From a virus (taxonomy: Duplodnaviria > Heunggongvirae > Uroviricota > Caudoviricetes), in the IMG/VR virus record IMGVR_UViG_2690316068_000002: DNA of 64,000 nt; one strand, given 5' to 3'. Position numbers and translations under genes: made by a program. Below the pieces are notes generated by a model. That model saw only the letters and a program-made list of their open reading frames with translations. It was not told where the DNA came from and did no database searches. The stretch's first letter is position 1, and each line of letters opens with the position of its first letter. Below, one piece after another: positions 9,392 through 63,012 of the stretch.

Positions 9392-9452
9392 GTGTTTTTC
9401 TCTTATCGTTTAGTAACTACATTCTTACACAAATTAGGTAAGTATTTACCTA

Positions 9453-11138
9453 TCATTTAACGCGTTTGAAAACGTATACGCTGACTGTGATCCCTGTGTC
9501 TTCAAACTCGTTGGTAAACGACTTCCCTCTGGCATAAACGTAATTATCCATCGTCATCCAGTCCAGTATTGGCGCAGTGCCCGGCAATACTGCTACAAGA
9601 CGCCCGCCGACTTTCAGATGCCCCAGCGCAGCCAGCGTGTGCTCTCTATGACGACCAAGCGAGTACGGCGGGTTCATAACGATTTTGTCGAACTGATAAC
9701 CTACGTTGTCCTCAGACCACTTTATGAAGTCGCAGCAAATCGTGTTCGTATACCCTTTTCCGCGCAGGATATCAGCGAAGAGAGGTGCGATTTCTATGCA
9801 GGTAACATCTTCCAGATCGGCGTTGATATAGGCCAGAAGATCCCCACGTCCGGCTTGAGGCTCCAGCAGCTTCTCACCAGACTTCAATTCAGTGGCTCTG
9901 GCAACGTACTCAGCAATCAAGCGTGGGGTAGGGTAGAACTGGTGTGATTTTGTATCCGGTATTAATCCGGTAGCCACAATCGTATTTAGCGTATGGCCGA
10001 TCTCATACGGGAACTGCCAGTGCTTTTTCTCCTGCACGCCGCCAATGAAGCTCAGTGTGCGCTCAAGCTCTTCCACCTGCGACTTCTGGAGAGCTGAATC
10101 AGAGAAGTACCATACGCCTTTGTCTTTGCTTAATCGCCCGTCACGAAGCGCAGTGCGAACCGGCACGGAGATCGTCTTCTGGATTAACCCGAACTGCTTT
10201 GGTGCCCGTGTTTTTGGCGCGGTGCGACATGGCGCGGGGATTGCAGCAGGCATACTGTAAGCCAGCACCTCATTCAACTTCCAGGCCACGTCAGGATGTA
10301 TTTCAAAGTGAACGTTGCCGTTCTTGAACATCTTCACGCGCATTAGATTTCCATCGACGTTCATCCAGTCACCGGTCTGGCAGTCGTTTGCCCGATACGC
10401 AGCTGATAGCACCTCAGCAGTGCGGTTGATGGTAATAAATTCTTTGTGCGCGAAGAAATGAAGCAAGACACGCAGATCGTCGATATAGTCCTCTTTGCGA
10501 TAGTTCACACTAACGCTGTCCCGCCAGAAATCAGAAATGCAGTCAGCGATTATCAGACGTTCGCTGAAACCGTTTGTCTTATTTGTCTTGTGCGCAGGAC
10601 TCAGCGCCTTAAACAAGCCATACACGCGCTCAGAGAGATATTTGTGCCTGTCATTCAGCAAATTAAGCATCGTGGGTATGACCGTTTCTGCTTTGAACTC
10701 CGGTACACCAACGAACTCTTTAACCTTCATCTGGTAGCCGGTTCTGTCAGTTTTGATGACTTCCTGTTTGCCCTCTATAAACTGCTCGCGCCACTCATCT
10801 CGACGGGAAGCTGGCATGATCAGCAAAACGTTAGTCATGTCCGTGACCTTCCTCCAGTACTCGGCCCAAATATTCTGTTTCACCCATTCCAGATCGACTT
10901 TATCCAACCAACCTCGATTTAAACGCGAGCGATCTTCATCTGGTCGATGGTTTAGTCTCAGCAGGCGATTAATCATGTTGTGGCGTTCGTCGCCATAAAC
11001 GAAGTCGTGTACCTGATACATGAAGGCGATCTCTTTCTCGCACTCGGCCACAATTTCGTGGATGACGTTCATTTCCTGCCGATAGTCGATAGCAGTGTTT
11101 GAGTTGGCATCGTCGATGATGGAAAGGGCTGTATTCAT
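9453..11138 (-). CDS. DNA methyltransferase (N6A/N4C class) with large N-terminal domain of unknown function
   Basis: 561 aa; C-terminal FYPTP...LEPQAGRG...VMNPPY motifs. Confidence 0.65.
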   Translation of the reverse strand: MNTALSIIDDANSNTAIDYRQEMNVIHEIVAECEKEIAFMYQVHDFVYGDERHNMINRLLRLNHRPDEDRSRLNRGWLDKVDLEWVKQNIWAEYWRKVTDMTNVLLIMPASRRDEWREQFIEGKQEVIKTDRTGYQMKVKEFVGVPEFKAETVIPTMLNLLNDRHKYLSERVYGLFKALSPAHKTNKTNGFSERLIIADCISDFWRDSVSVNYRKEDYIDDLRVLLHFFAHKEFITINRTAEVLSAAYRANDCQTGDWMNVDGNLMRVKMFKNGNVHFEIHPDVAWKLNEVLAYSMPAAIPAPCRTAPKTRAPKQFGLIQKTISVPVRTALRDGRLSKDKGVWYFSDSALQKSQVEELERTLSFIGGVQEKKHWQFPYEIGHTLNTIVATGLIPDTKSHQFYPTPRLIAEYVARATELKSGEKLLEPQAGRGDLLAYINADLEDVTCIEIAPLFADILRGKGYTNTICCDFIKWSEDNVGYQFDKIVMNPPYSLGRHREHTLAALGHLKVGGRLVAVLPGTAPILDWMTMDNYVYARGKSFTNEFEDTGITVSVYVFKRVK

Positions 11139-11179
11139 AATTGCACCATTAAGAAGTGATTTGTTTAATGGTGCAATTA
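11139..11179. promoter_or_regulatory. Perfect 14-bp inverted repeat abutting the methyltransferase start codon
   Basis: aattgcaccattaa-N13-ttaatggtgcaatt. Confidence 0.4.
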
Positions 11180-11241
11180 TTTCAAAAATGAAAAGGTACT
11201 AAATAGAAATAAACAGGCAATCCTTCAAATAAAGGCATTGG

Positions 11242-11856: not shown

Positions 11857-11858
11857 AA

Positions 11859-14283: not shown

Positions 14284-14428
14284 GTGGACTCCATCCAGTG
14301 TCAGAAAGAGTTGCGGCTGGCGATTGCCAGCCGCCTTTCTCGTTCCATCCTGGAACTGTGTCTTACCGACACATTGTCATCCTGACGCCGATAAGATACA
14401 TGATTTAAAATGATAGGTAAACACTTAC

Positions 14429-15073
14429 TTACTGCTTGTTGTAAACAAAACCAATATCTTTCTTGTGAGGCATATCTGCTGCGGAAAAAGCTGCGATCTT
14501 CGCGAGTCGATCACATATTTCATTTTCACGATGCCCGGCGTGACCTTTAACCCACTTCCAGCGAACATTATGTCGACTTGCAGCCTCATCCAGACGCTTC
14601 CACAGATCAACATTCTTTACCGGTTTTTTATCAGAAGTCATCCATCCATTACGTTTCCACCATTTCATCCACTGTGTCATGCCGTTTTTCAGATACTGGC
14701 TATCAGAGTACAAAATAACGTTGCATGGATATTTCAAACGCTCCAGCCCGATAAGTGCGCCCATCATCTCCATGCGGTTATTGGTGGTGCTATGAAAACC
14801 ATCTGAGAACTCGCGTTCCTCACCACGATACTGGAGAACGATACCGTAACCGCCCGGGCCACCCGGATTTTTAAGGCAAGAGCCATCACTAAAGATTTTC
14901 ACGGTTTTGAGCTGGGGATTGAACTCTACGACAGGCGTTGTGGGATTGGTGCGGGGAGATTTTTTGTTTTTGGCTTTTTTGCGAGTTTTTGCTTGCGATC
15001 GGGCTGGTGTCTTCGTCGTCATATAAACTCCTGAATCAAGCGCCGCGCCGATTTTTTCCTCGCGCGTGCGCAC
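14429..15073 (-). CDS. Ribonuclease HI with N-terminal basic extension
   Basis: [21 protein letters not shown]...[10 protein letters not shown]...[16 protein letters not shown] aligns to E. coli RNase HI catalytic residues. True start may be an internal Met. Confidence 0.8.
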
Positions 15074-15604
15074 ACGCGTGCGTGTTAATAATTATTAAAA
15101 TAAACAAATTACTTCCCAGAACAGGTTTTTATAAACCTGAACTGAACGAACGAAGTGAGTGAAGTTCACCTCGAACGAAGTGAGAGGTTGTCTTTTCAGG
15201 TAATACTCTCCCAGGGAGGTGAGTATAAAATTCCTCACCAACCTGGTCGTTTCATAACCTGAAAAGCTATGGTCTAAGTCTACTGCCAGCTTAGACTTGG
15301 GAAGTTATGGATGACAGCACCCCAGAACCGAGATCTTCCCACACTTTATGAAGGGGAGTACTGGATTCAACCTCTCGAAACACCCCAGACTCGACAATCA
15401 TAAAGTGACCCTTGTCTCTGCTCACTTTGGTTCCCCCTTCCCCGACACCTAAACGGCACCGGTTCTACGCTGGTAGTGAGCTTTTTTAAACCTGACGCCA
15501 GTGACGCTTACCCCCACCCATCAGGTCGAGTCTCCAGTCTACGACTGGAAACTATCAGATCTTAGCACTTACAATTCACTTTATAAATAGTTTGTACTTA
15601 TCTA

Positions 15605-15859
15605 TCATTGTGATTGATTATTTTCTCGACCATGTAGTTGAACATTCAAGGCAAACACCTCATTGATCAACTCACCTAAAAGCTGTTCAACAAGTTCGCG
15701 ATGCTCGCCAAGATGCAAGCACTTAATTGCCCACTCGTACAAGTTGAAAGCCTGCTCACGATCTTTCATCATTTCACGAGCCTGGGCCAGAAAATCGCTC
15801 TCTACGAGCGCAACGACATTAGTCGGGTATGACATGTTGGTTTCCTTAAAGTGGTTCAT
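15605..15859 (-). CDS. Hypothetical protein
   Basis: 84-aa ORF. Confidence 0.4.
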   Translation of the reverse strand: MNHFKETNMSYPTNVVALVESDFLAQAREMMKDREQAFNLYEWAIKCLHLGEHRELVEQLLGELINEVFALNVQLHGRENNQSQ

Positions 15860-15940: not shown

Positions 15941-15999
15941 AGCCTGCTTCCGTATATTAATAATTAATATGTAGTTATTTATATATACAGAAGCAGGCT
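15941..15999. repeat. Palindromic element, copy 1 (17-bp arms, AT-rich loop)
   Basis: agcctgcttccgtatat ... atatacagaagcaggct; near-identical arms recur at about 63013-63069. Confidence 0.6.
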
Positions 16000-16614: not shown

Positions 16615-16682
16615 CTTCTTTCTCGATAGGTAAGTGATTACCTATTTTTGCATTTGATTTTATGTCTGGCAATCAAATAAAA

Positions 16683-19457: not shown

Positions 19458-19933
19458 TACGACCTTCTGTATACGATCTGCGAAAAGCCAGGCTCTTCCT
19501 CGCTGGCTCGTTGGGTATAAGCTGTTTCAACAGGCACAAAGCCTAAGTTACGCATCATGCTTGCCGGGAAGAATGCATCGGCGTTTGGTACATCAACGCC
19601 GATGTGGGAGAGCCAAATCTCTTCAACATGCGGCATGAATAGCGAGTAAATTTGTTCCCCGCCAATCACCCACACAGGCTCTGGTAATCGCAACACATCA
19701 TCCACACCAGCAGGGTAGAATCCATTTGGTACAAAGCCATGAGAGCGCGTCAAAACGAGGTTATGACGCTCTGGAAGAGGGCGTTTGAGACTTTCCATCG
19801 TTTTACGCCCCATAACGACAGTGGCGTTTTTGGTGAGTCTCTTAAATAGCTTCAGATCGGTAGAACAACGCCAGGGCAGTTCGTTCGCTATGCCGATCTC
19901 ATAGTTACGGCCAACAGCAGCGATCATCTTCAT
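19457..19933 (-). CDS. Dihydrofolate reductase
   Basis: 158 aa; MIAAVGRNYEIG...LPW...VVMGRKT DHFR signature. Confidence 0.85.
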   Translation of the reverse strand: MKMIAAVGRNYEIGIANELPWRCSTDLKLFKRLTKNATVVMGRKTMESLKRPLPERHNLVLTRSHGFVPNGFYPAGVDDVLRLPEPVWVIGGEQIYSLFMPHVEEIWLSHIGVDVPNADAFFPASMMRNLGFVPVETAYTQRASEEEPGFSQIVYRRS

Positions 19934-20343
19934 TTGCTCACCTCATAGATGACCGGTCGATGGTGAGAGTCGGCTAAAGCGGCACGGAGTCGAGGATCGT
20001 GCACCAGCGCAGCGATAAGCAGATCGCCTTTATGCTCCGCTAATGTGCGCTTAATATGCTTCTCATAACTGGTGCCATTCGGTACGAGATGAAGCCAGTC
20101 ATAATCAACGCCAAAATCTTTCAGCCATCGTTTAGTTGGCGCTTCAAGAGTTTCAGAGCGGCTACTGATAAGCACCACTTCAGCCCCTGAGCGAGCAAAA
20201 CCACGCAACATACGGCTGGTGGGGAAAATGAGTTCATCACCGGCAATGAGCTGGCCTGCATCCGCGTCAGATACTGATTTACGATGGCTGGCATTTGCCA
20301 GCACACCTTCAATTTCGCATAAGACATACATACCTCTTGCCAT
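19930..20343 (-). CDS. Hypothetical protein
   Basis: ORF-track 19930..20391 trimmed to ATG 20343 to avoid overlap with thyA. Confidence 0.4.
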   Translation of the reverse strand: MARGMYVLCEIEGVLANASHRKSVSDADAGQLIAGDELIFPTSRMLRGFARSGAEVVLISSRSETLEAPTKRWLKDFGVDYDWLHLVPNGTSYEKHIKRTLAEHKGDLLIAALVHDPRLRAALADSHHRPVIYEVSK

Positions 20344-20344
20344 A

Positions 20345-21448
20345 TCACACCGCCACTGGAACCTTGATCCACGGTAGAGGGTCATAGCCAAGAATTAAAA
20401 CCTCGTCCCATTTGAAATCATCCAACTCTGACCATTCATGAGGGAAAATAACGACCGGATCTGAATGCTCTGGAGCCTGTCGTTTCATTAGCTCACACAC
20501 ACCTTCCATGTGGTTGTTGTACAAATGCACGTCAAAGCCAAAATGCACAAATGCACCGGCCATGTGACCCGTAATCTTCGCGAGAAAATGAGTGAGAATG
20601 CCATAGCCAGCAATATTGAATGGCATACCAACAAAAGTGTCTACGCTACGCTGTACGAGGCAGGAGTTGAGGATGCGTTTGGGGATTCCAAGTTCATCCA
20701 GTTCAGCTTCAGTAACACTGCCGTCCATCTCCAGATCGTATAGCATCTTGGTGTAGATAGACTCGTAACCGAGGCGACTGTGTTGAAGACCAATGTCAGT
20801 TGCCATCGTTAAACGGGTTTCAAAATCCAGCTCACGACTCCACAAAGAGAAGACAAAGTGGCAAGGTGGCAGTTTCATATCCTCAAGCTCGCCTACGTTC
20901 CATGCGTTAAGCATGATGCGACGATCGGTAGGGTTCGTGCGCAGTGTATCGACAATACGCTGTAGCTGATCGATTTCACGGGACAGCACTACGCGATCTT
21001 CACTGATACCCAGGTATCCCTCGACTTTGTACCCGCGTTCACGGAAAGTAGCGATCTTGCTCAGATATTCACTATGGCTCACGATGCGGGTATCTTCCCA
21101 TCGACGCCACTGCTTACCGTAAACCGGCCCCAAATCGCCATTCTCATCGGCCCATGCATCCCAAATCTTAACGCCGTTATCCTTGAGAAATTGGATGTTG
21201 CCCGTGCCTTTCAGATACCACTCAAGTTCGACAAGTAGTGGCTTAAGATTTACCGCCTTTCCAGAAATAAGCGGCACAGTCCCACCAGTAAGCATGTAGT
21301 AAGAGGGAACGTAGCAGGTGCTTAAAGTGCCAGTGCCTGTGCGATCATCAGCCTGCACGCCGCTTTTAAGCACCGTCTCAATAACTTTTGCATACGATGC
21401 GTTTGTTACCTGACCGTTCGTATGCTCTCGATTCAAAAGGAGTGACAC
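20345..21448 (-). CDS. thyA: Thymidylate synthase family protein with insertions
   Basis: 367 aa; DRTGTGT, WADENGDLGPVYGKQWR, LPPCH and PFNIAGY motifs. Confidence 0.8.
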   Translation of the reverse strand: MSLLLNREHTNGQVTNASYAKVIETVLKSGVQADDRTGTGTLSTCYVPSYYMLTGGTVPLISGKAVNLKPLLVELEWYLKGTGNIQFLKDNGVKIWDAWADENGDLGPVYGKQWRRWEDTRIVSHSEYLSKIATFRERGYKVEGYLGISEDRVVLSREIDQLQRIVDTLRTNPTDRRIMLNAWNVGELEDMKLPPCHFVFSLWSRELDFETRLTMATDIGLQHSRLGYESIYTKMLYDLEMDGSVTEAELDELGIPKRILNSCLVQRSVDTFVGMPFNIAGYGILTHFLAKITGHMAGAFVHFGFDVHLYNNHMEGVCELMKRQAPEHSDPVVIFPHEWSELDDFKWDEVLILGYDPLPWIKVPVAV

Positions 21449-21618
21449 AAAAACCTCACAAAGATAAGTAATTACTTATTCATCGTGTGAGTTTACATTC
21501 ATTGAGAGAACAAGACCAGACAGATAAAAAAATGGTGGCCATAGGCCACCAAAACGAATAGTCATTCCAGAGTTTTATTACGCATGTTAAATATACACAG
21601 ATAGATAACTACCTACAA

Positions 21619-22488
21619 TTATTTTTTGATCATTCCGTACATTGCTGAGGCTTTAGCTTGCTCAACAAAGGAGGATAAATCGACATCACTATAGGTTGGA
21701 GACTTCAGAATCTTTCCATCGGAAATTCGAAAACCGATCATCTTATCGGTGCCATCAGCATGGCGGAATCCCAGATCTGAAGAGTCGTATTTGCAGTTGG
21801 CCACAGCCTGGCGACGTTCCTCAACATCAGCAGGCCATAATTTTGTCATGTTAGACCGATGAATTTCGCCAACCAGCTCGACGACATTGATACCGAGGAA
21901 ATCAGCCAGTCGATAAGTCATCATGCACGCCACATAGATTTTGTTCATTACACGGCGCAGTTCCTGAATCAGCTCAGAATCCTTAACAGTCTTCTTCTCA
22001 AGTTTATCTGCCAGCTCTTCGAGCATACATGACGCCTCACGAGCTTCCTGAAATGGCATTGCCATATCATCGAAAACAGTGTTACCGGGCACAAAAATTG
22101 TCTGCATAAAGCGATCAATGCTCTGTTCCTGCGTGTAATAGGTCATGCCGGTAGAAATACCACCTTTGATGGAGACCATCGTACCAACACCAACGTATAA
22201 AAAGTCGGCCATTGCATCCAGCAGTTGCTCAATATCCCCATTCATTGCGGCTGGAATACCTTCCACTACAGCTTCTTCATGAATCAGGCTTGCACGGAGA
22301 CGAAGCAGCTCTGGTGTCGGCATAACGCGTCTCGGATGCTGGAAGAGTTCATGAAACTGATCGACCATCTTGTAAATACTTTCAGTGGCTACACCATGGC
22401 CTTCATGCAACTCATATGGTTCTGGCTTAAATCCAATGAGTCGATCGGTGGCAAGTTTCAGGTGGTCAGTCAGTTTGGTAAAGTTCAT
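21619..22488 (-). CDS. Hypothetical protein, possible MazG-like NTP pyrophosphohydrolase
   Basis: ORF trimmed to internal ATG 22488 with AAGGA Shine-Dalgarno; alpha-helical with EE-x-E-x-D-like acidic pattern. Confidence 0.35.
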   Translation of the reverse strand: MNFTKLTDHLKLATDRLIGFKPEPYELHEGHGVATESIYKMVDQFHELFQHPRRVMPTPELLRLRASLIHEEAVVEGIPAAMNGDIEQLLDAMADFLYVGVGTMVSIKGGISTGMTYYTQEQSIDRFMQTIFVPGNTVFDDMAMPFQEAREASCMLEELADKLEKKTVKDSELIQELRRVMNKIYVACMMTYRLADFLGINVVELVGEIHRSNMTKLWPADVEERRQAVANCKYDSSDLGFRHADGTDKMIGFRISDGKILKSPTYSDVDLSSFVEQAKASAMYGMIKK

Positions 22489-22565
22489 GCTAGTTTTGTT
22501 CCTTCTTAATTCTTGTGATCCATTGTGGCCCAGCGTTGCCAGGCCACATAATGCTTTGTATCGGT

Positions 22566-23708
22566 TTACAGGTCTGCAAACTGGCTTAGAGAAGCCTTGT
22601 CCACGGTAGAATCGATCTGACCTACCAGATATGTGCTTTGCTCTGCCTCTTGTGGTGCAATTTGCAGTGTGTCGGTTAACAACCACTTGTTCATCCAGAC
22701 CAGCGGATCAGTGGTAACTTCTGGAAATAAAGCCTTCAGGCCAAGACGATTCATAGCCAGATTGGTTCGGTATTTTACATAGGTCTTCAGAATATCCGCG
22801 TTTAAACCAATCATCGAACCGTCTTTGAAGAGATAGTCTGCCCAGTTCATTTCTTGTTCGGCGACTGATTTCATGGTGTCGTAAATGACGTTTTCTTCAT
22901 CAGCAGCAATCTCTTTCCACAATAAACCTTCGCGACCGGTACGCATGAAGCGGATCATGCGTTCAGTTCCTTCGCAATGCAGAGCTTCATCACGGGCAAT
23001 AAAGCGCATAATTTTGGTGTTACCCTCAAGCAACTTCCGTTCGCCAAAGGCAAACGTACATGCAAAACTTACATAGAAACGGATCGCCTCAAGCGCATTA
23101 ATGGACACTAACGTGCGGAAAAGCTGACGGTGCAAAGGATATGGCTCCCAGCCATATTCATTTACGTACAGACGCTCAAATTCCTTCTCGCCTAACGACT
23201 GGCGATCGCAGGTCATCCCATAAAGCCTGTCATATTCAGCAGAGATACTGATGGCTCGGTTGATGATTTCTTCATCCGTAACAATACCGTCAAAAACAAT
23301 ACTCGGATCGTCCACCATGCCACGAATAATGTGGGTGTAGCTGCGGCTATGGATAGTCTCAGAGAAAGACCACGTTTCAACCCACGTTTCCAGTTCAGGA
23401 ATAGAGATAAGCGGCAGCAGAGTTGCGTTTGGGCTACGTCCCTGAACTGAATCGAGCAACGTTTGATAACGGAGATTACTCAGGAAAATGTGGCGTTCGT
23501 GGTCCCGCAGCTTCGTATTGAAGTCGATGCGATCGCTCGAAATATCAACTTCTTCCGGCCGCCAGAAGAAAGACAATTGACGTTCAATCAACTTTTCAAA
23601 ATCACGGTATTTTTGTTGATCGTAACGAGCCACGTTGACAGATTGTCCGAGGAACATAGGCTCTTTGGTTGCATCATTAGCACCCAAACGGAACGTTGAA
23701 TATGACAT
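22566..23708 (-). CDS. nrdB: Ribonucleotide reductase class Ia beta subunit
   Basis: 380 aa; near-collinear with E. coli NrdB. Confidence 0.92.
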
Positions 23709-23808
23709 GTGTTTTTCCTTTTTTGATGTGTTTAAACAAGTTGTTATCTTATGTGTTTAAACAAGGCTTACAAATCAAAGATAAGGTGGGGATATACCCC
23801 ACCATATG

Positions 23809-26124: not shown

Positions 26125-26197
26125 GTATCACCAAATAAAGAGGGCCACTAAATATAGTGGCCCATGTTAATAGATAAGCACTTACCTATCAATGAAA

Positions 26198-26767
26198 TCA
26201 AATGAGAGACTTAAGAACATCGCGCACCTGGCGGAACTGATCTGTTTGCATACCGGTATGGATGGCAGCCACCGCATCAGCCAAATGTTCGTTTTTGTTC
26301 ACGAGAACATCCTGTCCAGATTGCTTACGACGCAGCCACGGTGCTTTAGGGTGTTTTTTCGTAGCCCACTGGATAATCTCTTCTTTCGATGTAGTAAGTT
26401 TATTGCCGACAAAATGCTTGATTTCGTTTGGAGTAACCTGGATCAATGGCTTATCCACACACGCAAGTACACCGATACAAATACCGTAAGACGTCTGCGA
26501 ACGAGAGTTTTGGCTCCCAACCGGTAGCTCACAAAAAACCATATTTGCCTTATCAATGATTGGCTTCGCAACACGCCATATTTCACTGGCGCGGCGCAGA
26601 TCGTCACTGTTCACACGAACGGTCTTTTTGTTACTCCCCGCTTTAGTCTCAACAAGAGTAAGGCCGTGAATCTCAAGTTCGTCCGTCTCAAGGTCTAAAG
26701 TGCCCACAGCAAGCCCAAAGTTGCTCATTGAGGGATCAACACCAACTACGCTGATTTTTTTACTCAT
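26198..26767 (-). CDS. RuvC-like Holliday junction resolvase
   Basis: 189 aa; N-terminal VVGVDPS pattern typical of RuvC-fold resolvases. Confidence 0.5.
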   Translation of the reverse strand: MSKKISVVGVDPSMSNFGLAVGTLDLETDELEIHGLTLVETKAGSNKKTVRVNSDDLRRASEIWRVAKPIIDKANMVFCELPVGSQNSRSQTSYGICIGVLACVDKPLIQVTPNEIKHFVGNKLTTSKEEIIQWATKKHPKAPWLRRKQSGQDVLVNKNEHLADAVAAIHTGMQTDQFRQVRDVLKSLI

Positions 26768-26776
26768 ATAGTCTCC

Positions 26777-30741: not shown

Positions 30742-30967
30742 GTGTTTTTCCTTTGTGGTTATTTTGATACAGATATTAAGTGTGTTTGAGAGGCGAACAA
30801 TCCAGATAACACGGCCATTAAGAATGTTCACAGACACATGATTATGGCAAATTCATAGGTAAGTGAATACCTATTTTTATGGGCAGCAAAGATTTCTAGA
30901 TGTTACAAGCCACTCTATAATCGCAGTCACTTAATGATGACAACCAAACGAAAAAGGAGAACTGACG

Positions 30968-32965: not shown

Positions 32966-32985
32966 TGAATGACAAAGGTGTCCAC

Positions 32986-35383: not shown

Positions 35384-35422
35384 GATAGGTAGATACTAAC
35401 TTATATAAATTTTACTGTAAAC

Positions 35423-37305: not shown

Positions 37306-37397
37306 GTGTTTTCCTATGTGGTTGTTATGCGAAAATAATAAGTAAGTGCTTATATATTTTCAAGAGATAAAAAAGGCGTCCTGTGGACGCCTTGTGT

Positions 37398-40773: not shown

Positions 40774-40890
40774 GTGTTTCTCCTTGTTGTGATTTGGCCG
40801 ATGGCGCTATGCGCGTTGGGCTTTCGTTCATTCGTGGCTCTTTCGAGCTGTTAAATGATAGATCAGTACTTACTTATTATCTATCAAAAA

Positions 40891-41529: not shown

Positions 41530-41559
41530 GTTGACAGATGTCAACACTGTGAATAGAAT
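41530..41559 (+). promoter_or_regulatory. Sigma70-type promoter with overlapping palindromic operator
   Basis: TTGACA-N17-TAGAAT; -35 lies inside palindrome GTTGACAGATGTCAAC; AGGCG Shine-Dalgarno and ATG at 41577 follow. Confidence 0.6.
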
Positions 41560-41861: not shown

Positions 41862-42425
41862 ATGGCGCTTTATAACTTCACTCTGACGCTCTCAGGCGTA
41901 TCGTATGAGACGGAAGGACTGGAAGACGCGCTGTACCAAAACGGCTGTGACGATGCGCTAATTTGCGCATATGGAAACTCCGTCTATGTAGAATTTGACC
42001 GCGAAGCACAATCACTTGATGCAGCTATCGCATCTGCGGTCGACAATATTGAATCAGCCGGTATCGGTGCAATTGTTGAATCCGTCGACTCGGCTCTTGT
42101 GGGCTTAAGCGATATCGCGGAACTGACAGACCTGTCTCGCCAGGCAGTGGCGTTGCTCAAAGACGGTAAGCGCGGAAGCGGCGACTTCCCTTGCCCTGTA
42201 CAACGCATAAAAGGCCAGTCTCCTCTCTGGGATTGGGCTGATGTGGCTGAATGGCTCATGAATAACGGACGACTTAAAGAGGGCGATCAAATTGTCCAAA
42301 ATGCCCGAACTTTGAGTAAATGGAATCTGGCGCTTCGAAACAGCGTCTCGAAAGATTTCAACGAAATAGAGCAAATTGCGGAGAAACTGATTAAACGCCG
42401 CAAAGATATTGCGAAATGCGCATAA
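41862..42425 (+). CDS. HTH-containing protein, possible antitoxin or regulator
   Basis: ATG at 41862 with AAGGA Shine-Dalgarno; C-terminal LSDIAELTDLSRQAVALL HTH-like segment. Confidence 0.4.
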   Translation: MALYNFTLTLSGVSYETEGLEDALYQNGCDDALICAYGNSVYVEFDREAQSLDAAIASAVDNIESAGIGAIVESVDSALVGLSDIAELTDLSRQAVALLKDGKRGSGDFPCPVQRIKGQSPLWDWADVAEWLMNNGRLKEGDQIVQNARTLSKWNLALRNSVSKDFNEIEQIAEKLIKRRKDIAKCA

Positions 42426-46200: not shown

Positions 46201-46792
46201 CTACTTTCATCGCTCGGACGTTAATCTGGTCGTAGAATGGGGTAGGGTGCGGATAAACCACGCTATAGAAGTTGTCTTTCCCGCCCGCTGTAATCAGTGA
46301 GCTTATGATTTTTGCAAAATCGTTGCGTTGGAACACGCTACCGATGTCGGAAGTGAGCAGGATGATGTTGCCTTTGGCATATGTAGAAACCAACTGTTCG
46401 AGCGAGAGACGCGGTACAAAGTAGAACTGTTCTCGTGTGTTGGCCACCGTCATTAGTTCGCAGATGTCGCGATATCCTTGCTCATTTTTAATTAGAGCGG
46501 TAAACGAGTAGTTACGTCCCCGCTCTAATGATTCCATACATCTCATAGATTCTTTAGCAAGTTTAGCCCGGTGCTCGTATGTGGGATCATCAACGATATT
46601 TAGTTTCACACCACAAATAACCGCCATGTCGTCACCAGCGGCACGTTGTAGTGGAATAACGCTCGCAATATTCATGCTATCTGCTGAAATTACAGCGGTG
46701 TAGCCAGCTTCTCTGGCAATCTTCACCGCGTTTTCTGCTTTTAGAGCCGACTCCCCAAGTGAGAAGTCAGTTCGAACCATCAGTGCCTTCAT
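43274..46792 (-). CDS. DNA polymerase III alpha-type (DnaE family) replicative polymerase
   Basis: 1172 aa; N-terminal PHP domain; GPGRGSSAGSLVAWCIGITNVDP motif; conserved ribosome-binding context. Confidence 0.9.
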   Translation of the reverse strand: MKALMVRTDFSLGESALKAENAVKIAREAGYTAVISADSMNIASVIPLQRAAGDDMAVICGVKLNIVDDPTYEHRAKLAKESMRCMESLERGRNYSFTALIKNEQGYRDICELMTVANTREQFYFVPRLSLEQLVSTYAKGNIILLTSDIGSVFQRNDFAKIISSLITAGGKDNFYSVVYPHPTPFYDQINVRAMKVASALKIEPVAFYPAYYESIDDADIKDIAHMVTNNIKIDQPHRLRIPHQRDNAINGRRHLLEALKAFSVRMDVPVTAAMASTTQDSIIDACTWRWHELPPALPKMADDEPATLMKLAVAGLRKRLTTKEFGYTPPASENRVYVERLKYEMNTLTRLGFCGYFLMVRDLMNHSRETGIPVGPGRGSSAGSLVAWCIGITNVDPIRHGLLFERFINPERLDLPDADLDFSQARRHEVIEYLNERYGEDYVAGIPNFTYLGAASALRDTARIYGVESADMAVSKELKNVEDDSLPLEELREQLASLDKYATKYPDAFNAACKLQSLMRGFGRHAAGMIVAGVPLTERTPVERRGDARCIAFDKRYCEAMGLIKLDVLGLATLDLLDSAKRYIKENTGEDINLDAISLEDRKVLDGFAAGYTQGVFQLESGPMRKLLKDLGGGIEPMSFKTVVATTALFRPGPIQSGMLDDYVSVAKGFMTPESLHPVLDELTAETNGVILYQEQTMNATRLLAGFTMAEADGVRSAIGKKNMEKMKSMGEKFIVQAQAGWIDVELEDGTTQRIHRAEHFKCEDGTLKTVEEALEHGAKLPINAVRVTASHPGLSEMKAKEIWTAFEKNGAYQFNKSHSVAYSLISYQSMWLKTHYPAEFFAAALTILGEDKHQGLVKDALTYGIRVLPPDVNVSSNRIEIRTLEDGSQVLYAPFSAVKGCSENGCQAIMRAREKVGGKFESLAQFEEAVEKRACNSRVRESLQKVGAFASIEPGSLPATDPERLRDQAELMGNLVIDAVKASRPFEMNPKRSAEINVLMTRMAAEMGLGDELIRPNIGIKPKIMIILDNANGNDARTGYFMENGYDDFKAKLLTAGDLRMGDLYVTGVCKKVKDKEKDYTKDEIGQFTDFMREEINLVRPTYILTCGSRSTALFNNKSKPSDLIGRKEYFPELDATVFYGFNPNILYFRPEEGERLEAILADIAETINK

Positions 46793-46976
46793 GTGTTTTT
46801 ACCTTTCTGGTTTTTTTGATTTTGTCATTTGGGAAGCCTACGAACTTCCCATGCATCGAAATCGCAACTTCTTTTGCTGATTGGTGACAATCGGGCTTGT
46901 CTGGACACACCAGACAAGCCTTACCAGTTTCAGAAGCAGCGATAAGAGAGCCGAAACATCCTTTACGCACGATCAA
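46767..46976 (-). CDS. Small Cys-containing protein (possible zinc ribbon)
   Basis: 69-aa ORF between CobS-like and DnaE genes; overlaps DnaE start by 26 nt. Confidence 0.25.
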   Translation of the reverse strand: MIVRKGCFGSLIAASETGKACLVCPDKPDCHQSAKEVAISMHGKFVGFPNDKIKKTRKVKTHEGTDGSN

Positions 46977-48208: not shown

Positions 48209-48303
48209 GCGTTTTTCCTTTGTTTTCTAATGAGCGTTCAACTTCTTATATAAATATATCATTATCTATCGTAAGTGGTTACTTATCATTAAGGCTGTTT
48301 TAT

Positions 48304-50510: not shown

Positions 50511-50723
50511 TTAACAGATTCTGACGGCTAAAGACCAGGAGCCGGTATTGAGAAGCGTGAAGCGTTTGTTGTTAAGTTCGAATATAAAGCCAGTTGTGTC
50601 ATTCACACCAACCTGAATCTGCTCATTCGGTAGATCGGTGAGGATGTCAGCTACACACTCATCAGCTAATTTCTGTACGTGTCCGATCTCAAGAGCGATT
50701 AGGCTGGAAATAGTGGTGTTCAT
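50511..50723 (-). CDS. Hypothetical protein
   Basis: 70-aa ORF. Confidence 0.4.
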   Translation of the reverse strand: MNTTISSLIALEIGHVQKLADECVADILTDLPNEQIQVGVNDTTGFIFELNNKRFTLLNTGSWSLAVRIC

Positions 50724-50974
50724 TCAATCAATCCATTCTAACTTATACTATGGTAAGGAATACTACTAAAATTTGTATCAATACTGAATACATTCATATC
50801 ATATGCAAGTTGATTTTCTTACCTGTTTTGGGCTAATTTTTCTCCGTGCAATGGCCTTTAACCGGTCTTTTAAGTGCCTATCGAAAAAAATGATAATAGC
50901 TTTACAACCCTAACCTTTGATGTAATATCGGTAAGCACTTACCAGAGAGAATTGAACGCGCAAAGGTTGTAACC

Positions 50975-51361
50975 ATGTCTGATAACAAGATTGAATTTAT
51001 AGAAAGTCGCTACGCTGCTTTTATCGCAGGGTTGATTGAATCCTCACCTATGAGCCAGGCCCAGATAGCCAAAACAATTGGGTATAAAAACGCCAACAAC
51101 CTTTCTTTAATTAAAAGCGGCAAAATTCCTTTGCCTATCGATAAGGTTCGTCCGCTGGCGCTGGCACTGGGCATTGAGCCAAGTCGTCTTATGATGATGG
51201 TGCTGGAAGAACGCCAACCCGAACTCGCAGCATTTTTATACAAAGAAGGCACTGCTCCTCTTAACGAGGACGAAAAACAGGTTCTTGCTGCATATAACGA
51301 GCGATTCGGTAAAGAGAAAGGCGCATCACAAAAGGTTGTTGAGGCCATAAAGTCTCTATGA
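50975..51361 (+). CDS. HTH (XRE/Cro-CI family) transcriptional regulator
   Basis: 128 aa; SQAQIAKTIGYKNANNLSLIKSGK HTH; convergent with integrase. Confidence 0.6.
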   Translation: MSDNKIEFIESRYAAFIAGLIESSPMSQAQIAKTIGYKNANNLSLIKSGKIPLPIDKVRPLALALGIEPSRLMMMVLEERQPELAAFLYKEGTAPLNEDEKQVLAAYNERFGKEKGASQKVVEAIKSL

Positions 51362-52459
51362 AAAATTTACACGAATAAGCTCTGTTGATAGACGATCTCC
51401 CTTAAATTTGTGGTCAATTTCGTCTAAATCCGGTTGCTCTACGATTGATGCGATGTACGTCGAGAAACTTTCTAAGGCGTCTCGCATCTCGTCCATATAA
51501 TCGTGCCGGTCGTAGACCCGATCTATCCCCTCAAGACTGTGGTTCATGATTTTACGTGATACCTCCTGGCTTATGCCTAATGCTGGGAAGTAACTACGCG
51601 CAGTACGGCGCAAATCTCGGGGTGTAAATGGCTCAAGCTCCATCAGTTCTGGTCGTTCCAGAATACGACGTAATGCCTGGGCTATTGCCACTTTAGACAT
51701 AGGAAGGTCTTTCCCGATTTTTTTATTCGAAGGCACGAGCCACTGGCTGTCTTTACCATATTCGAACAACTCTTCAATACAAGTGCGCATTAATGAGCTT
51801 AAAGGCAGAGAATGCTCACGGGCAGATTTGTTCCTCTTGCCTTGATTCCAAACCCCACGCTTAAGATTGAACTCACTTTTTTTAGCCCGCAGTACTTCGT
51901 CAGGTCGTCTTGCGGATACAAGACATAGCCTGGCCGCCCATTTTGTACCAGCACACACATTGAAGTAGTCCCATATATTCCAGAACACCCATACCTCTGC
52001 GTCGGTCAGCTTCCGCTCGCGAGGTGTGGGCTTTGCGCCACCGGCAACTTTGTTAAGTGACATATCGTTTAACGGTGACACGTCTATCATCCCCTGGAAG
52101 GCGCACCAGCTAAGGAACTGCTTCATCAGAGAGAAAACGCGGCGGCCCATAACAATTTTGCCATCCAGTATTAGTGGGTTGACCAGTTGGTTCACCATGA
52201 ACCTATTAATGTCACTTACTTTTACATCGGCAATGTGCGGCAAAACATGTATCAAAATACAATGAACAGCGATCTCTGGCCGACGTCTGGTTATCAGCAG
52301 AGATAAGCGAGTGAATAACATGAATGCGTCCGAGAATCTCATGTCATTGCTGACCTGGGAGATCATAACGGCCTGCATTTGAGATGCTCTTTCGAGATAC
52401 TCTATCGCCTCTTTTGAGGTGTTCTCCGCAGCGCGTGCTCTGTCAAAGCTATTTTTCAT
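51356..52459 (-). CDS. Tyrosine recombinase / phage integrase family
   Basis: 367 aa; C-terminal RDLRRTARSY...NHS...VYDRHDY catalytic motifs. Confidence 0.8.
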   Translation of the reverse strand: MKNSFDRARAAENTSKEAIEYLERASQMQAVMISQVSNDMRFSDAFMLFTRLSLLITRRRPEIAVHCILIHVLPHIADVKVSDINRFMVNQLVNPLILDGKIVMGRRVFSLMKQFLSWCAFQGMIDVSPLNDMSLNKVAGGAKPTPRERKLTDAEVWVFWNIWDYFNVCAGTKWAARLCLVSARRPDEVLRAKKSEFNLKRGVWNQGKRNKSAREHSLPLSSLMRTCIEELFEYGKDSQWLVPSNKKIGKDLPMSKVAIAQALRRILERPELMELEPFTPRDLRRTARSYFPALGISQEVSRKIMNHSLEGIDRVYDRHDYMDEMRDALESFSTYIASIVEQPDLDEIDHKFKGDRLSTELIRVNFS

Positions 52460-52557
52460 ATGACAATCACCGAGTTACGCCGATGCACTGTATAAGTAAA
52501 CAGTATATTAGGCATAGATTCTTATAGGATCAAGAGTAAAAGTAACTCATTTTCAGC

Positions 52558-52920: not shown

Positions 52921-53102
52921 TTCACCTCGTGCAACTGCTGTTCATTAACGATGATTGTGTCAATTTCGTAGCCGTGGATGCGTGGCTTTGGCTTCACTGC
53001 CTGACGAGCTGCGCGACGCGCCTGTTTACGTTTGTTTCCCATATAGAGTCCTTTCAAGTGAGTAAGTGTCGTGACTATAGCTAAAATGAATAGGTGAGTC
53101 AT
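52917..53102 (-). CDS. Hypothetical small basic protein
   Basis: 61-aa ORF, 4-nt overlap with grx. Confidence 0.3.
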   Translation of the reverse strand: MTHLFILAIVTTLTHLKGLYMGNKRKQARRAARQAVKPKPRIHGYEIDTIIVNEQQLHEVK

Positions 53103-53191
53103 TACCTATTTAATGTGTTTGGTTACTAAGCAGAAATGGCTTTGTGAGGTTGACACATTAGAAACGGCAAGACAGCTTTAAACTAGCTGAA

Positions 53192-54481
53192 ATGGTATGG
53201 TCGATTAGGTATCATTCAGTTTCAAAATTAACCAAAGACACTGATAAAATGCCTGTTTTGTTAATCCTCATACTTGGGACAGTGATGATTATTTTCTGGG
53301 ATACCGTCAAGGAAAACGTAGAGGTCATAGGTACACTTGCCACTTCACTTGCATTTTTCGCCACAGCATGGGCCGCTTACGAGGCAAGGCATAGTGCAAA
53401 GGCAGCAATGAGGGCCACTAGGCTGACGGCAGCTTCACTCCTTGAAATGAAAAAAGCCTCTTTTAAGGAATGGTACGGCATATTACTTGAACAGCATAAT
53501 AGATTACTTGAGGATGTTAACAAGACCTTGCAGGATGATAGGGAACTTAATGCAAAACTGGGAACGAATCTCATCAAGGCTATTTATTACCATGTAACCA
53601 AAAACTCCGTTTACATTAAATATATTAACCACATAGTTTTAATTCTTGATTATTTAGATAAAGACTTCTATTCGCCGTCATCAGCCGATTATGAAAAGAG
53701 AGCTTACATAGAACAGCTGCGCAACAGCATTAGTCCTAATGTAAGCCTGCTGATAGCTACATTCGGCCTTAATATTGACACTAATAAAACCTATGACGCA
53801 AAGAGGCTTTACAGCCTGCTAAGCAAGTATAACTTCTTCGAAGGCCAACTTTTTTTTGAAGAAGCAATATCGAAAGTTCATTATTTGGACTCTTATGCTG
53901 CTGTGATATTTGATAACGAATACCGAAAAGATGTAGAGTTTTATGTTGAAGAAATGGTTCGAGGTCGTGAGACCCCTAAAATCGATTCAAGATATCGTCA
54001 TTTAAGGGCTACGTTCGCAATTCTGTGGTCTTACAACAACCCCTGCCGACAACATTTGCTTCAAAGATTTAATGACCTACCTATGCATATGCGAAACAGC
54101 ATTGAGCTGAGGATGGAAAATGCAGCCGATAAAGTAGCTGAGTTCAACTCTTTGTTACTTGGTTTTATAGGCTGGGAGCTTAGAATCGCAGGTAATAAAG
54201 TGAGGGTGATCAAGGATGAAAAACATTTAAAGAGGCTAATAAAACTCAACGATAAGTATCCAATTCCCCCCCGAGAGAAAGGTATTCTGTTAACCAATGG
54301 TTTCACCAATAGATTCGCTGATGAGATTAAAAATAGTCTGTCTATGTATAAGTTAGAAAATGCCTATTTAGCACTCAACTCTAATCAACACAAAGAAAAG
54401 GTGATTGATGAAATTGTTGTTGAAGTTGAGAAAATTGTCGATAAATTTAAAGCAGAACTTGATTCTTTGGATTTCAACTAA
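53192..54481 (+). CDS. Hypothetical membrane-anchored protein (AT-rich, plus strand)
   Basis: 429 aa; N-terminal hydrophobic helix; lower GC than neighbours; own terminator. Confidence 0.5.
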   Translation: MVWSIRYHSVSKLTKDTDKMPVLLILILGTVMIIFWDTVKENVEVIGTLATSLAFFATAWAAYEARHSAKAAMRATRLTAASLLEMKKASFKEWYGILLEQHNRLLEDVNKTLQDDRELNAKLGTNLIKAIYYHVTKNSVYIKYINHIVLILDYLDKDFYSPSSADYEKRAYIEQLRNSISPNVSLLIATFGLNIDTNKTYDAKRLYSLLSKYNFFEGQLFFEEAISKVHYLDSYAAVIFDNEYRKDVEFYVEEMVRGRETPKIDSRYRHLRATFAILWSYNNPCRQHLLQRFNDLPMHMRNSIELRMENAADKVAEFNSLLLGFIGWELRIAGNKVRVIKDEKHLKRLIKLNDKYPIPPREKGILLTNGFTNRFADEIKNSLSMYKLENAYLALNSNQHKEKVIDEIVVEVEKIVDKFKAELDSLDFN

Positions 54482-55036: not shown

Positions 55037-55040
55037 AATT

Positions 55041-55595: not shown

Positions 55596-55985
55596 TGCTG
55601 GCTAACCATACCAGCCGGGCTACGTCGCCGCTTTTTAACCCAGTATAAACGACATAATTGAACAAAATGACGTAACAGGATGGGCGGTCAGTGGCTAAGA
55701 ATCCGGGAGTCATATGGAGTTGAAAATATACCAACCGCCCATTCTGTTACTTCATCGGAGGGAACATGAATGTTCCCTCCTGCGTTCTGCAATCACACTC
55801 GCTCAGTGTGTCCCATTTCGGTAACGAGGCTGGAAACTGACCTCGCTGGTGTTTGGCTTATTAGGCTACTGCCAGATAGACTTCTTCGTTTGCACTTGTA
55901 TTTAAGTTCAAACAGTCGCGTCTCAACGAAAACAAAGTCATCTTATACATAAAAGATAAGTAAGTAAATACTTATTATTGTATTT

Positions 55986-58598: not shown

Positions 58599-58652
58599 AA
58601 ATAATCTTGTACTTACCTATCGTTATTTGCGTAAAAACGACGCACGGAGAGA

Positions 58653-59435: not shown

Positions 59436-59510
59436 ACCAACTCCTAGCTAACAGATGAAAGTATTCTCACAGAAAGATAAGTAATCATCTACTTATTTTA
59501 AAGGTGATTG

Positions 59511-60773: not shown

Positions 60774-62114
60774 TTAGGTAACGTCTAAGATTCGCTCAAT
60801 GAAACGCATTTGTTCGAGGTTTTGTTTAACGCGAATGCTGATCCCACCCTGCTGGTTACGTGAACCAGCAAAGTAGAGACGAGCCTCTCCTTTCGCTTCT
60901 TCTTCTTCGGTTTTGTTGATCGTTATTACCAGGTCAGCAATACGTACTTTTTCGATGTTATCGGCGGCGTGCATCATTGTGGCAACTTCTGACGCGCCAC
61001 CTTCACGGTTTGTCTGCGATGCCGTGATCCCAGCAACGTTATGCTTGTCATAAAGAGCACGTAAATCGGTGTAGATACTACGAATGTTGGCGCGATCATC
61101 ACGAAGGTCATAACTGGCACGCATCAAATCTGCGTAGTCGACAACAACCATGTCAGGCACCATGCCGTTGGCTTTCATGCTGTTAAGCATACGGTCCAGA
61201 TCTGCCGGTGACATACTTCCTGACGGACGCTCAACAACCCACAAACTACCAATCCCCTTAGAGGCTCCCAACTCTGCCAACTTACGATGAACTTCATCGC
61301 GCCGTTCCACCAACTTGGACATTTCCGTCTCCGACAATCTTGCATCAAAACGGTCGGACAAAATGTTGGTGTGAACCTCCAGCGAGAGATACAGAACATT
61401 GTAGCCAGCAAGCGTTGCGTTTATGGAAAACTCACCCATTGCGGTCGATTTACCGGATTTAGCGAACCCCATGAAGAGCACCATTTCACGCTTCGCCCAG
61501 CCTTTTTGGTACAGCAACCTATCGAGCAGAGGGAGTCCAGTTGTAATGCTGTTTGGCACATACTCCTCTGAGGCCTCATATTCACGCGCTTTCAGTCGCT
61601 CACTTGCTGAGGTGTAGTAGTCATAGATTCCGGTTGCTTCGTTCGAGCCTATCTGCTGAACCTTGGCCATGATTGCCATCGCCCCCTGAAAGTCGCCCTT
61701 CTCTTTCAGTTCAGCAGCCTTAATCAGAGCATCATCAAACGCTACGCTTTTTGCGAAGGTTGATACCTGGTCAACCATGTACGAGGTATCGGACAATTTT
61801 TCTGCAAGGATGCGCTTAAACGCAGCAACAACATCGGCGAATAGTTCCTCACGGATAGTCTTATCGCGTTTCGCACGCTTAAGCATATCCAGAATTGCAG
61901 ATGAAGAGGGCGCGCTCTTGTACATACGGTAATAGCCCGAAACCATATTAACCAATATGGCATTGGCCGCATTGGCAAATTGGTTAGGCACAACCAGATC
62001 TCCCGCACGAGTAAGAAACTCGTGATCACGACAAAAATATGCCGTCAGTCTGTTCTGGAAATCTTCATCAAACTCTTCGGACAGCCCGCGTCCTGTATGG
62101 CAAAGTTCGGTCAT
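60774..62114 (-). CDS. DnaB-like replicative helicase
   Basis: 446 aa; Walker A GFAKSGKS, Walker B VVVDY, ASQTNREG H3 motif. Confidence 0.85.
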   Translation of the reverse strand: MTELCHTGRGLSEEFDEDFQNRLTAYFCRDHEFLTRAGDLVVPNQFANAANAILVNMVSGYYRMYKSAPSSSAILDMLKRAKRDKTIREELFADVVAAFKRILAEKLSDTSYMVDQVSTFAKSVAFDDALIKAAELKEKGDFQGAMAIMAKVQQIGSNEATGIYDYYTSASERLKAREYEASEEYVPNSITTGLPLLDRLLYQKGWAKREMVLFMGFAKSGKSTAMGEFSINATLAGYNVLYLSLEVHTNILSDRFDARLSETEMSKLVERRDEVHRKLAELGASKGIGSLWVVERPSGSMSPADLDRMLNSMKANGMVPDMVVVDYADLMRASYDLRDDRANIRSIYTDLRALYDKHNVAGITASQTNREGGASEVATMMHAADNIEKVRIADLVITINKTEEEEAKGEARLYFAGSRNQQGGISIRVKQNLEQMRFIERILDVT

Positions 62115-62157
62115 GTGCTTTCCTTTGTTTTTTAAACAAATTGTTTTCTAGTATTAG

Positions 62158-62907
62158 TTAATTAGATAGGGGATCAATAAACCGCCGTGCTTCTTCCAGT
62201 TCTTCTGGAAAGTGGGCGGAAATAAGGCGTTCTGGAACGATTTCCATTAGCCAGATAGCGGAGAAAATTGCGCGTATGCGCTTGCTGCGAGGGATGGTGC
62301 GCAAACGCTCCAGAATCCACTCAAAATAGCTTTCCTGAATCGGGTTGAACTGCATGTCTCCCATATGCTTAAAGCTAACCAGAGAGTCATCCAGACGGGT
62401 TGTTGCGCGTCTGGCTAATTTCTCTTCAAATATCTCAATCAGTTCTGGCTGCCACAAATGCTGTGGGCGCGGCAGCTTGTCCCACAGCCGTCGTGCAGCT
62501 GCGGAAAGAACGGTGGAGATAAAGTAGTCGTATGAGCAGCAATAGCGATCCGCAAACTGGCGTGCTTTCCATAGCGACGTTTTATTGGCAGTCGACAACT
62601 CCTGATAAGGCAGGCGTTTTAACCCGGTGGTGAACGGAGCTGTTTCAAAGTGTTCGCGACCGTGCGTCAGCATGATATTTGAGTACTGACGTTTGTATGC
62701 CTCCGTAAAAAGACAGGTGGCCATGAGAGGATGCATGTCGCGGTAATCAAACCACTTCGTCTCGAAGAGTTCAGCCTCGTCTTTACAGCGCGACAAACCA
62801 ATGTTTTCAGCGACCCACTTGTCCATAACAGCGGTATTCCACTCTGTCATGAAGTCGTACTGGTCGTTGTCGATGGTATCGAAAAAGATTTGGCTCATGT
62901 GGCTCAC
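62158..62907 (-). CDS. Hypothetical protein
   Basis: 249-aa ORF with GTG start. Confidence 0.5.
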   Translation of the reverse strand: MSHMSQIFFDTIDNDQYDFMTEWNTAVMDKWVAENIGLSRCKDEAELFETKWFDYRDMHPLMATCLFTEAYKRQYSNIMLTHGREHFETAPFTTGLKRLPYQELSTANKTSLWKARQFADRYCCSYDYFISTVLSAAARRLWDKLPRPQHLWQPELIEIFEEKLARRATTRLDDSLVSFKHMGDMQFNPIQESYFEWILERLRTIPRSKRIRAIFSAIWLMEIVPERLISAHFPEELEEARRFIDPLSN

Positions 62908-63012
62908 CTGGTAGGTAGTTACTTACTTATCACAATGAGCGGATGATAGCGACTGGTGGCAGTTTTTGGAAGTGGAAACGGAAGGGACTTGTTCTGGTGG
63001 GTGTCTTTAAAA

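Follow-up and report, generated by a model that had tools for sequence, protein, structure and literature searches.

A conserved palindrome dispersed over SSU5/pHCM2-type phage-plasmids has the features of a repressor operator set

The 64,000-nucleotide stretch of IMG/VR virus record IMGVR_UViG_2690316068_000002 analysed here as a whole (the window) carries a 20-bp palindrome that recurs in many of its intergenic regions, and the possible function of this palindrome is the subject of this study. By megablast, the window belongs to the SSU5/pHCM2 group of phage-plasmids, with about 98% identity to Escherichia phage Cyrano (pLF82) and CMS-2020a and about 78-80% identity to Salmonella phage SSU5. 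With the annotation of Cyrano as a guide, it covers the minus-strand replication, recombination and nucleotide-metabolism genes and, in addition, a block of small genes (1-9400), RepA, a HicAB module and a module consisting of an integrase and a helix-turn-helix (HTH) regulator. The structural genes are located outside the window.

An initial annotation, made from the letters of the window alone, had listed the palindrome at 15 positions and proposed a motif search for enrichment. Such a search found it far more often than expected and conserved in related elements. With ATAGGTAAGTNNTTACCTAT and at most 3 mismatches, 12 distinct sites (18 strand matches) were obtained in the window, compared to 0.02 expected from shuffled sequences. 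A symmetric position weight matrix seeded from these sites returned 22 sites of at least 12 bits and 15 sites of at least 15 bits, where 0.77 and 0.13, respectively, are expected by chance; the matrix was kept fixed, since iterating it shifted it onto the motif's 4-bp periodicity. The dispersed palindrome is therefore real. Twelve of the 15 listed positions are strong sites, whereas three (48267, 58601 and 50927) are weak or partial, and one strong site at 40858 had been overlooked. Every strong site falls in a gap between genes, and yet only 17 of the 49 intergenic gaps of the window are occupied, while many 60-270-bp spacers between lytic genes are free of sites. The motif thus marks a subset of gaps, about one for every two to four genes, rather than AT-rich spacers in general. 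Its shape had to be redrawn: instead of 8-bp arms around a 4-bp centre, the consensus is a complete palindrome of two 10-bp arms without a true centre (ATARGTAAGT/ACTTACYTAT, the slash separating the halves), and a logo of 64 sites from three genomes shows weaker, nearly symmetric flanks (A-W-R ... Y-A-T) that extend it to 26 bp.

We then asked in which form such a site is read. Among 67 distinct 20-mers from four genomes, the arms form 397 Watson-Crick pairs, compared to 393±6 when the right halves are shuffled among the sites, and on the sense strand G·U (39) is as frequent as A·C (40). At pair 4-17, the sole strongly variable one, all four combinations occur in near-equal numbers and are thus independent. 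As the halves drift independently around one half-site consensus, a symmetric dimer appears to recognise the site in double-stranded DNA; both the logo and the half-shuffle test exhibit the pattern of a two-fold symmetric operator with independently varying halves. The LexA-box pattern CTGT-N8-ACAG is absent from the motif. That the palindrome is a double-stranded repressor-type site is a narrower claim than the full model presented below, and we consider it to be better founded.

The position of the palindrome relative to promoters points in the same direction. At five loci, representing four geometries, sigma70-type hexamers are conserved in three to five lineages while the spacers have diverged (see Table 1 for the copies in the window). 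In geometry (a), TTGAAA and TATNAT enclose the palindrome as their 17-bp spacer both at window 37335-37363 and at the 3' end of the portal gene; the former is the second-best match of a promoter scan and is preceded by an intrinsic terminator (37373-37393). Geometry (b), TTGCYA-N17-AAAAAT across lineages, uses the last AT of its -10 hexamer as motif positions 1-2, which places the palindrome at about -8 to +12, and promoter (c) is built likewise. In geometry (d), TTCCAA-N17-TATSAT is followed by 10-12 nt, the palindrome and then directly the Shine-Dalgarno sequence. Judged by the inferred transcription starts, an overlap with the core promoter or the start is present at all five loci. A protein bound there would exclude RNA polymerase or block it just past the start, and the overlap of the operator with the start region also accounts for several sites being located only 12-13 nt from a start codon. 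As far as the sequences tell, the positions at the conserved loci fit repression, not activation. The initial annotation had noted that the motif does not match a sigma70 consensus. This holds for the motif itself; its ends (TAT plus YAT), however, form -10-like hexamers, with TAnnnT at positions 18-23 in about 64% of the 64 sites, and sites overlap sigma70-type promoters. The suggestion of an element-specific promoter has lost ground, since several of the conserved loci have an ordinary sigma70-type promoter whose inferred start is overlapped or followed by the palindrome.

The same pattern extends beyond the window. At a threshold of 12 bits, the whole genome of Cyrano holds 28 sites (1.0 expected), that of SSU5 25 and that of Klebsiella pJN2-26 23, and pHCM2 and pMT1 also carry the motif. 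Within the SSU5 group, orthologous gaps hold sites even though the flanking sequence diverges. Early and late lytic gene blocks are both served. In the late operon, sites occupy the terL/portal gap and a position close to the end of the portal gene, follow the major capsid gene and precede genes for tail, tail fibres and lysis. Strong sites are lacking among the small genes at 85-105 kb of Cyrano (the counterpart of window 1-9400) and ahead of repA and parA. Acinetobacter phage-plasmids, which share the gene order and a TerL that is 59% identical, possess dispersed palindromes of their own: TTAGTAAGC/GCTTACTAA in p5768 (33 sites versus 0.5 expected) and ATCAGTCAGT/ACTGACTGAT in NZ_CP156934 (12 sites in 40 kb versus 0.05 expected). 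A single frame, AT..GT.AGY/RCT.AC..AT, fits all three variants, and the Acinetobacter sites share the terL/portal, post-capsid and cobT/cobS gaps as well as those before nrdA and before the ParB-like genes. Sequence comparison thus identifies the three motif variants as having co-evolved within one old family. A scan of IMG/VR returned SSU5-group loci only and hence no further specificity variants. In the syntenic Pseudomonas phage ZY21 (Nickievirus; TerL 55% identical), de novo k-mer and palindrome searches found no recurrent palindrome, and its annotation lists no integrase, repressor or RepA. ZY21 instead repeats a -35-like element, TAAACGCTTGCA, with the look of an extended -35 (e.g. at 9249, 103204, 103430 and 108274); one copy sits in the terL/portal gap, which bears a palindrome in the temperate relatives. 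In the searchable literature, nothing relevant was found on the motif sequence, SSU5 regulation, pHCM2 transcription or immunity control in the family.

As a protein that might bind the sites, each Cyrano protein was profiled against the window, SSU5, pJN2-26, ZY21 and two Acinetobacter elements. Among the recognisable DNA-binding regulators, only an XRE-type HTH protein was found across the motif-bearing lineages (SSU5 itself excepted) and missing in ZY21; together with the neighbouring integrase it occurs in 865 plasmids. In every lineage with the gene, its control region contains motif-type sites: one conserved weak site in the SSU5 group, three sites in NZ_CP156934 and two weak ones in p5768. 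The weak site of the SSU5 group, the variant at 50927, is conserved in Cyrano, pJN2-26, pHCM2, pMT1 and about 75 IMG/VR loci. The protein matches PHROG 8 'transcriptional regulator' (1.3e-11). In Foldseek, its AlphaFold2 model (predicted local distance difference test, pLDDT, 75) matched the N-terminal domain of lambda cI, C.AhdI and HigA with a probability of 0.97-1.0 (E≥0.04) and also resembled Stl, while a PDB sequence search with the protein gave no match. Two HTH proteins had initially been named as possible binders. The one at 50975..51361 emerges as the best candidate, by its co-occurrence with the motif and the site at its own promoter, whereas the other (41862..42425) matches CYRAN_50, a putative HicB antitoxin in the Cyrano record, and has no homologue in the motif-bearing pJN2-26 or the Acinetobacter relatives. 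A near-consensus sigma70 promoter without a palindrome (41531-41559; TTGACA-17-TAGAAT, 11 of 12 positions) is located upstream of hicA, which would agree with constitutive toxin-antitoxin expression. Other proteins were considered and set aside as binders: an FljA-family protein (Pfam Flag1_repress), Cra and other small regulators are missing from the Acinetobacter relatives, and for the FljA-family protein the hairpin result also speaks against it; a Zn-ribbon open reading frame (ORF; 46767..46976) and a TerS-like protein are present in the motif-free ZY21. A sigma70-like gene of p5768 has no homologue in the SSU5 group or ZY21 and so cannot explain the shared motif.

From the computed reality, symmetry, distribution, conservation and co-evolution of the motif and from its promoter geometries, we infer a binder, a repressive action and a link to SOS. 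The palindromes would be the operators of one phage-encoded repressor that silences most lytic units during the plasmid prophage state, a reading to which we assign a probability of roughly 60%. It is favoured by the enrichment, the double-stranded symmetry, the repression geometries and the phyletic pattern, and it agrees with the earlier proposal of a global-repressor operator set dispersed like the C1 operators of P1. A dimer of the XRE-type HTH protein would bind each 20-26 bp palindrome with one subunit per half-site. The bound repressor would exclude or block RNA polymerase at the spacer plus -10, at the -10 plus the start site or within the first 25 transcribed bases, so that early and late lytic transcription units would be silenced directly. 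The weaker site over the start of the repressor's own gene would confer negative autoregulation. In the LF82 (Cyrano) lysogen the HTH gene is expressed, and genotoxic stress induces Cyrano (PMC9928086). The LexA box at the integrase gene is conserved in relatives (five reported), including Cyrano, pJN2-26, pHCM2 and pMT1, and suggests SOS-driven transcription that converges into the repressor gene; SOS input may reach the switch by this route. Induction would then probably depend on the LexA-controlled convergent promoter or on an antirepressor and not on self-cleavage. A perfect LexA box (TACTGTATATACATACAGTA, 2639-2658) also occurs just upstream of a umuD-like S24 peptidase gene (2233..2622). 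The structure model of the small ORF at the 'cro position' was too poor to be used (pLDDT 46).

Several observations weigh against this interpretation. SSU5 keeps 25 good sites without the HTH module. Compared to pHCM2, with which it is 94-97% identical in the background, SSU5 lacks a single block of 7.5 kb (42639-42673 in the compared stretch of SSU5, 19505-27044 in that of pHCM2) holding a small ORF, the HTH, integrase, grx, gp49-like and phoH genes and others. A recent loss of the module is a sufficient, if not a proven, explanation for the exception, and SSU5 may be a repressor-less, obligately lytic derivative. The Klebsiella HTH protein is only 56% identical, with two changes in and next to the predicted recognition helix, and the motif there is unchanged. 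The phyletic match of ParA is equally good and includes SSU5. The Pfam match of the HTH protein (HTH_19, E=7.8e-4, 19.7 bits) stays under the gathering cut-off of 30.2, and its Foldseek E-values are weak, as the model derives from a single sequence. Most sites have no recognisable -35, many cannot be assigned to a promoter from sequence, and TAnnnT occupies positions 18-23 in only 7 of the 15 window sites.

In function, the best reading is that the system comes closest to a dispersed operator regulon of the P1 C1 type with an unrelated repressor; by protein type, the candidate is a Cro/CI-like XRE regulator. As in P1, one immunity repressor of a plasmid prophage would act on many scattered operators in front of separate lytic operons, including that of its own gene. 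The P1 record annotates operators that overlap sigma70 promoters, and the dispersal over a plasmid-prophage recurs here, the window holding 22 sites and the whole genomes 23-28 each. In contrast to P1, we find a 20-26 bp palindrome and a small XRE-type candidate. C1 itself gave no match at E≤0.8 in tblastn searches of the window, Cyrano, SSU5, pJN2-26 and p5768, and the asymmetric 17-bp operator of the C1 type, ATTGCTCTAATAAATTT, has one chance match with 4 mismatches in the 64 kb. Moreover, the late genes of P1 are controlled by Lpa, whereas here sites also lie inside the late structural operon. As for the lambdoid CI/Cro systems, the modelled fold of the candidate resembles the cI N-terminal domain, with the weak E-values given above. 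Likenesses in the arrangement are a palindromic operator overlapping the -10 or -35, operators between divergent repressor and lytic genes, and an autoregulatory site. The present system differs in having about 25 operators genome-wide instead of two clusters, and in that the 128-aa protein contains no S24 peptidase domain.

Table 1 Features of the window. cy, ss and kp denote site positions in Cyrano, SSU5 and Klebsiella pJN2-26; promoters (a) to (d) follow the geometries described in the text.
Feature	Position	Strand	Bits	Sequence or size	Context and conservation
Site	9434..9453	-	25.9		Between DUF4942/methylase-like and Ead/Ea22-like genes; orthologues cy84620, ss84178, kp20935
Site	14413..14432	-	24.2		Right after stop of RNase H-like gene; TATCAT follows; orthologues cy79651, ss79904, kp16842
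Weak site	15586..15605	-	12.1		Only upstream half good; orthologues cy78477, ss78709
Site	16626..16645	-	29.1		12 nt upstream of adenine methyltransferase start; about -8..+12 of promoter (b)
Promoter (b)	16644..16672	-		TTGCCA-N17-AAAAAT	Upstream of adenine methyltransferase gene; conserved in Cyrano, SSU5, pJN2-26
Site	21460..21479	-	23.1		12 nt upstream of thyX start; intrinsic terminator about 45 nt farther upstream
Site	26170..26189	-	28.2		RuvC-like gene/nrdA gap
Site	30855..30874	-	26.1		Upstream of sbcD-like gene
Promoter (a)	37335..37363	-		TTGAAA-N17-TATTAT	Conserved in Cyrano, SSU5, pHCM2, pMT1
Site	35385..35404	-	22.0		TATCAT follows; called promoter-like by promoter scan (TTTATA-16-TATCAT)
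Site	37338-37357	-	23.5		Spacer of promoter (a)
Site	40858..40877	-	25.0		Gap between uvsY-like gene and gp32-like single-stranded DNA-binding protein gene
Weak site	48267..48286	-			cobT-like/cobS-like gap; orthologous to site 16716 of Acinetobacter p5768
70-aa ORF	50511..50723	-		70 aa	'cro position': divergent from HTH gene, first gene in lytic direction
Promoter (c)	50901..50928	+		TTTACA-N16-TAATAT	HTH gene; geometry as (b)
Degenerate variant	50927..50946	+	10.4	ATCGGTAAGCACTTACCAGA	About -8..+12 of HTH gene promoter (c)
XRE-type HTH protein	50975..51361	+		128 aa	Identical to CYRAN_45; candidate master repressor
Tyrosine integrase gene	51356..52459	-			Convergent with HTH gene, overlaps its 3' end
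LexA box	52486..52505			CACTGTATAAGTAAACAGTA	About 27 nt upstream of integrase gene
Site	53090..53109	-	23.6		Upstream of glutaredoxin gene; pHCM2 orthologue precedes phoH-gp49-grx
Site	55956..55975	-	25.4		Head of 1.2-kb gap that holds tRNA genes in Cyrano
Half-conserved site	58601..58620	-	13.2		Downstream half replaced by sequence abutting next start codon
Site	59477..59496	-	21.7		Primase gene/next gene gap
Site	62911..62930	-	23.8		Shine-Dalgarno and ATG of first gene of helicase-primase block directly after; about +4..+25 of promoter (d)
Promoter (d)	62943..62971	-		TTCCAA-N17-TATCAT	12 nt upstream of site 62911; conserved in Cyrano, SSU5, pJN2-26, pHCM2

The foremost alternative holds that the palindrome is the site of a phage activator that replaces the -35, with the downstream TATYAT serving as -10 of activator-dependent lytic promoters. 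The lack of a -35 at most sites and the frequent TAnnnT hexamer would be accounted for in this way, and in Acinetobacter the downstream end strays from the palindrome towards TATAAT/TATACT more often than the upstream end does. There is also a precedent, as Lpa acts at 11 late promoters of P1 through a dispersed short inverted repeat next to the -10 hexamer, without a -35, and the -22 box of P1, AAGTTACTT, resembles the core AAGTACTT of the motif. However, the repeat centre lies 7.5 bp from the -10-like hexamer here, compared to 14 bp in P1 LPhot; not only late genes but also early genes for replication and nucleotide metabolism have sites in front of them; and the flanks in the SSU5 group are nearly symmetric. 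Several palindromes overlap or follow the inferred start: at loci (b), (c) and (d) they span about -8 to +12 or +4 to +25, where an activator cannot work, and the class (a) promoters already possess near-consensus hexamers. No Lpa homologue was found, the best tblastn hit (E=0.29) being to a gene absent from SSU5 and pJN2-26, and no activator candidate that ZY21 lacks is shared by the SSU5 group and the two Acinetobacter lineages. We therefore regard activation as unlikely.

Slightly less likely still is that a different DNA-binding protein owns the sites, either a ParB_N protein acting like KorB or the small partner of ParA, and that the HTH gene is merely one of the regulated genes. KorB, a member of the ParB family, has 12 OB palindromes as its targets on plasmid RK2. 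Both systems have palindromes dispersed over a plasmid as a global regulon, with distances to promoters that vary, and ParB_N proteins are encoded here as well: two are conserved family-wide, with a site just upstream of their operon (cy105107, kp34775 and Acinetobacter 72687). ParA, in turn, accompanies the motif in every lineage, SSU5 included. On the other hand, ZY21, which has no palindrome family, encodes ParB-like proteins (ParB_N, 33-42% identity) and the Zn-ribbon protein as well, parA is not preceded by a site in Cyrano, p5768 or NZ_CP156934, and the FljA-like protein, Cra and other small regulators do not extend to the Acinetobacter relatives. Unlike the sites of KorB, those described here sit on core promoters.

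A hairpin in RNA or DNA, acting in termination or processing, as initially proposed, or in mRNA stabilisation, would suit the perfectly palindromic consensus, the intergenic placement and the proximity of several sites to GC-rich terminator hairpins. We consider it very improbable. The arms do not covary and G·U pairs are no more frequent than A·C, the stem is AT-rich without a consistent U-tract, and the T-runs noted on the '+' strand are no terminator tails once read in the orientation of the genes; the canonical GC-rich intrinsic terminators are separate elements upstream or downstream of the motif. That the palindromes are recombination sites of the adjacent tyrosine integrase, which co-occurs with the motif and whose core sites would typically have inverted arms, is hardly credible, as they lack an asymmetric spacer of 6-8 bp, about 25 sites without orientation would scramble a genome whose gene order is kept from E. 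coli to Acinetobacter, and SSU5 has the sites without the integrase.

With the operators of a single repressor as the preferred explanation, a more far-reaching picture can be put forward tentatively. One small repressor might gate essentially every lytic unit of a phage-plasmid of about 110 kb through some 25 core-promoter operators, in a flat manner and without a temporal cascade. Operator set and repressor might have shifted their specificity together at least three times (Enterobacterales and two Acinetobacter lineages), with the sites staying orthologous. Phage-plasmids of the SSU5/pHCM2 type are widespread, with about 800 PLSDB plasmids carrying a terminase of at least 80% identity, and include pHCM2 of Salmonella Typhi, pMT1 of Yersinia pestis and Klebsiella elements. 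If the repressor model is correct, the sites amount to a complete and testable map of an immunity regulon, in which the candidate repressor is named and SOS input is probable, and the motif would foretell which elements are homo-immune. SSU5, as a repressor-less derivative, would be expected to be blocked by the repressor in trans. The three related operator specificities would offer a natural case of regulon-wide operator-repressor co-evolution, in which a large regulon and its regulator can be studied changing together, and a source of orthogonal repressor/operator pairs.

Some further features of the window deserve mention. Two large hairpins (15941-15999 and 63013-63069) with nearly identical arms of 17-18 nt (RRCCTGCTTCYGTATAT) and AT-rich loops of 21-25 nt constitute a second repeat family, which Cyrano has at the corresponding places. 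Despite the backbone identity of about 98%, three differences from Cyrano stand out. RepA (32866-34080) is only 50% identical to that of Cyrano, which suggests a swap of the replicon. A 429-aa ORF (53192-54481) stands in place of CYRAN_43, the most highly expressed gene of the Cyrano lysogen. RecA (37398-38471) comprises 357 aa in the window and 779 aa in Cyrano, suggesting an insertion or intein in the latter. The Zn-ribbon ORF at 46767-46976 (minus strand) encodes a Cys-rich protein of 69 aa (GCFG-X13-C-X2-C-X5-C) between a cobS-like gene and dnaE and has no annotation in Cyrano. Homologous sequence forms the N-terminus of proteins of 180-226 aa in ZY21 and Acinetobacter p5768, where the homologue adjoins a sigma70-like gene; the SSU5 group is without that sigma70-like gene. 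Outside the window, CYRAN_114 (780-1301 of its Cyrano stretch) encodes a full-length FljA-family protein ('repressor of phase-1 flagellin', Pfam E=1e-80), which is conserved in Cyrano, SSU5 and pJN2-26 and may be a lysogenic-conversion gene targeting host flagellin.

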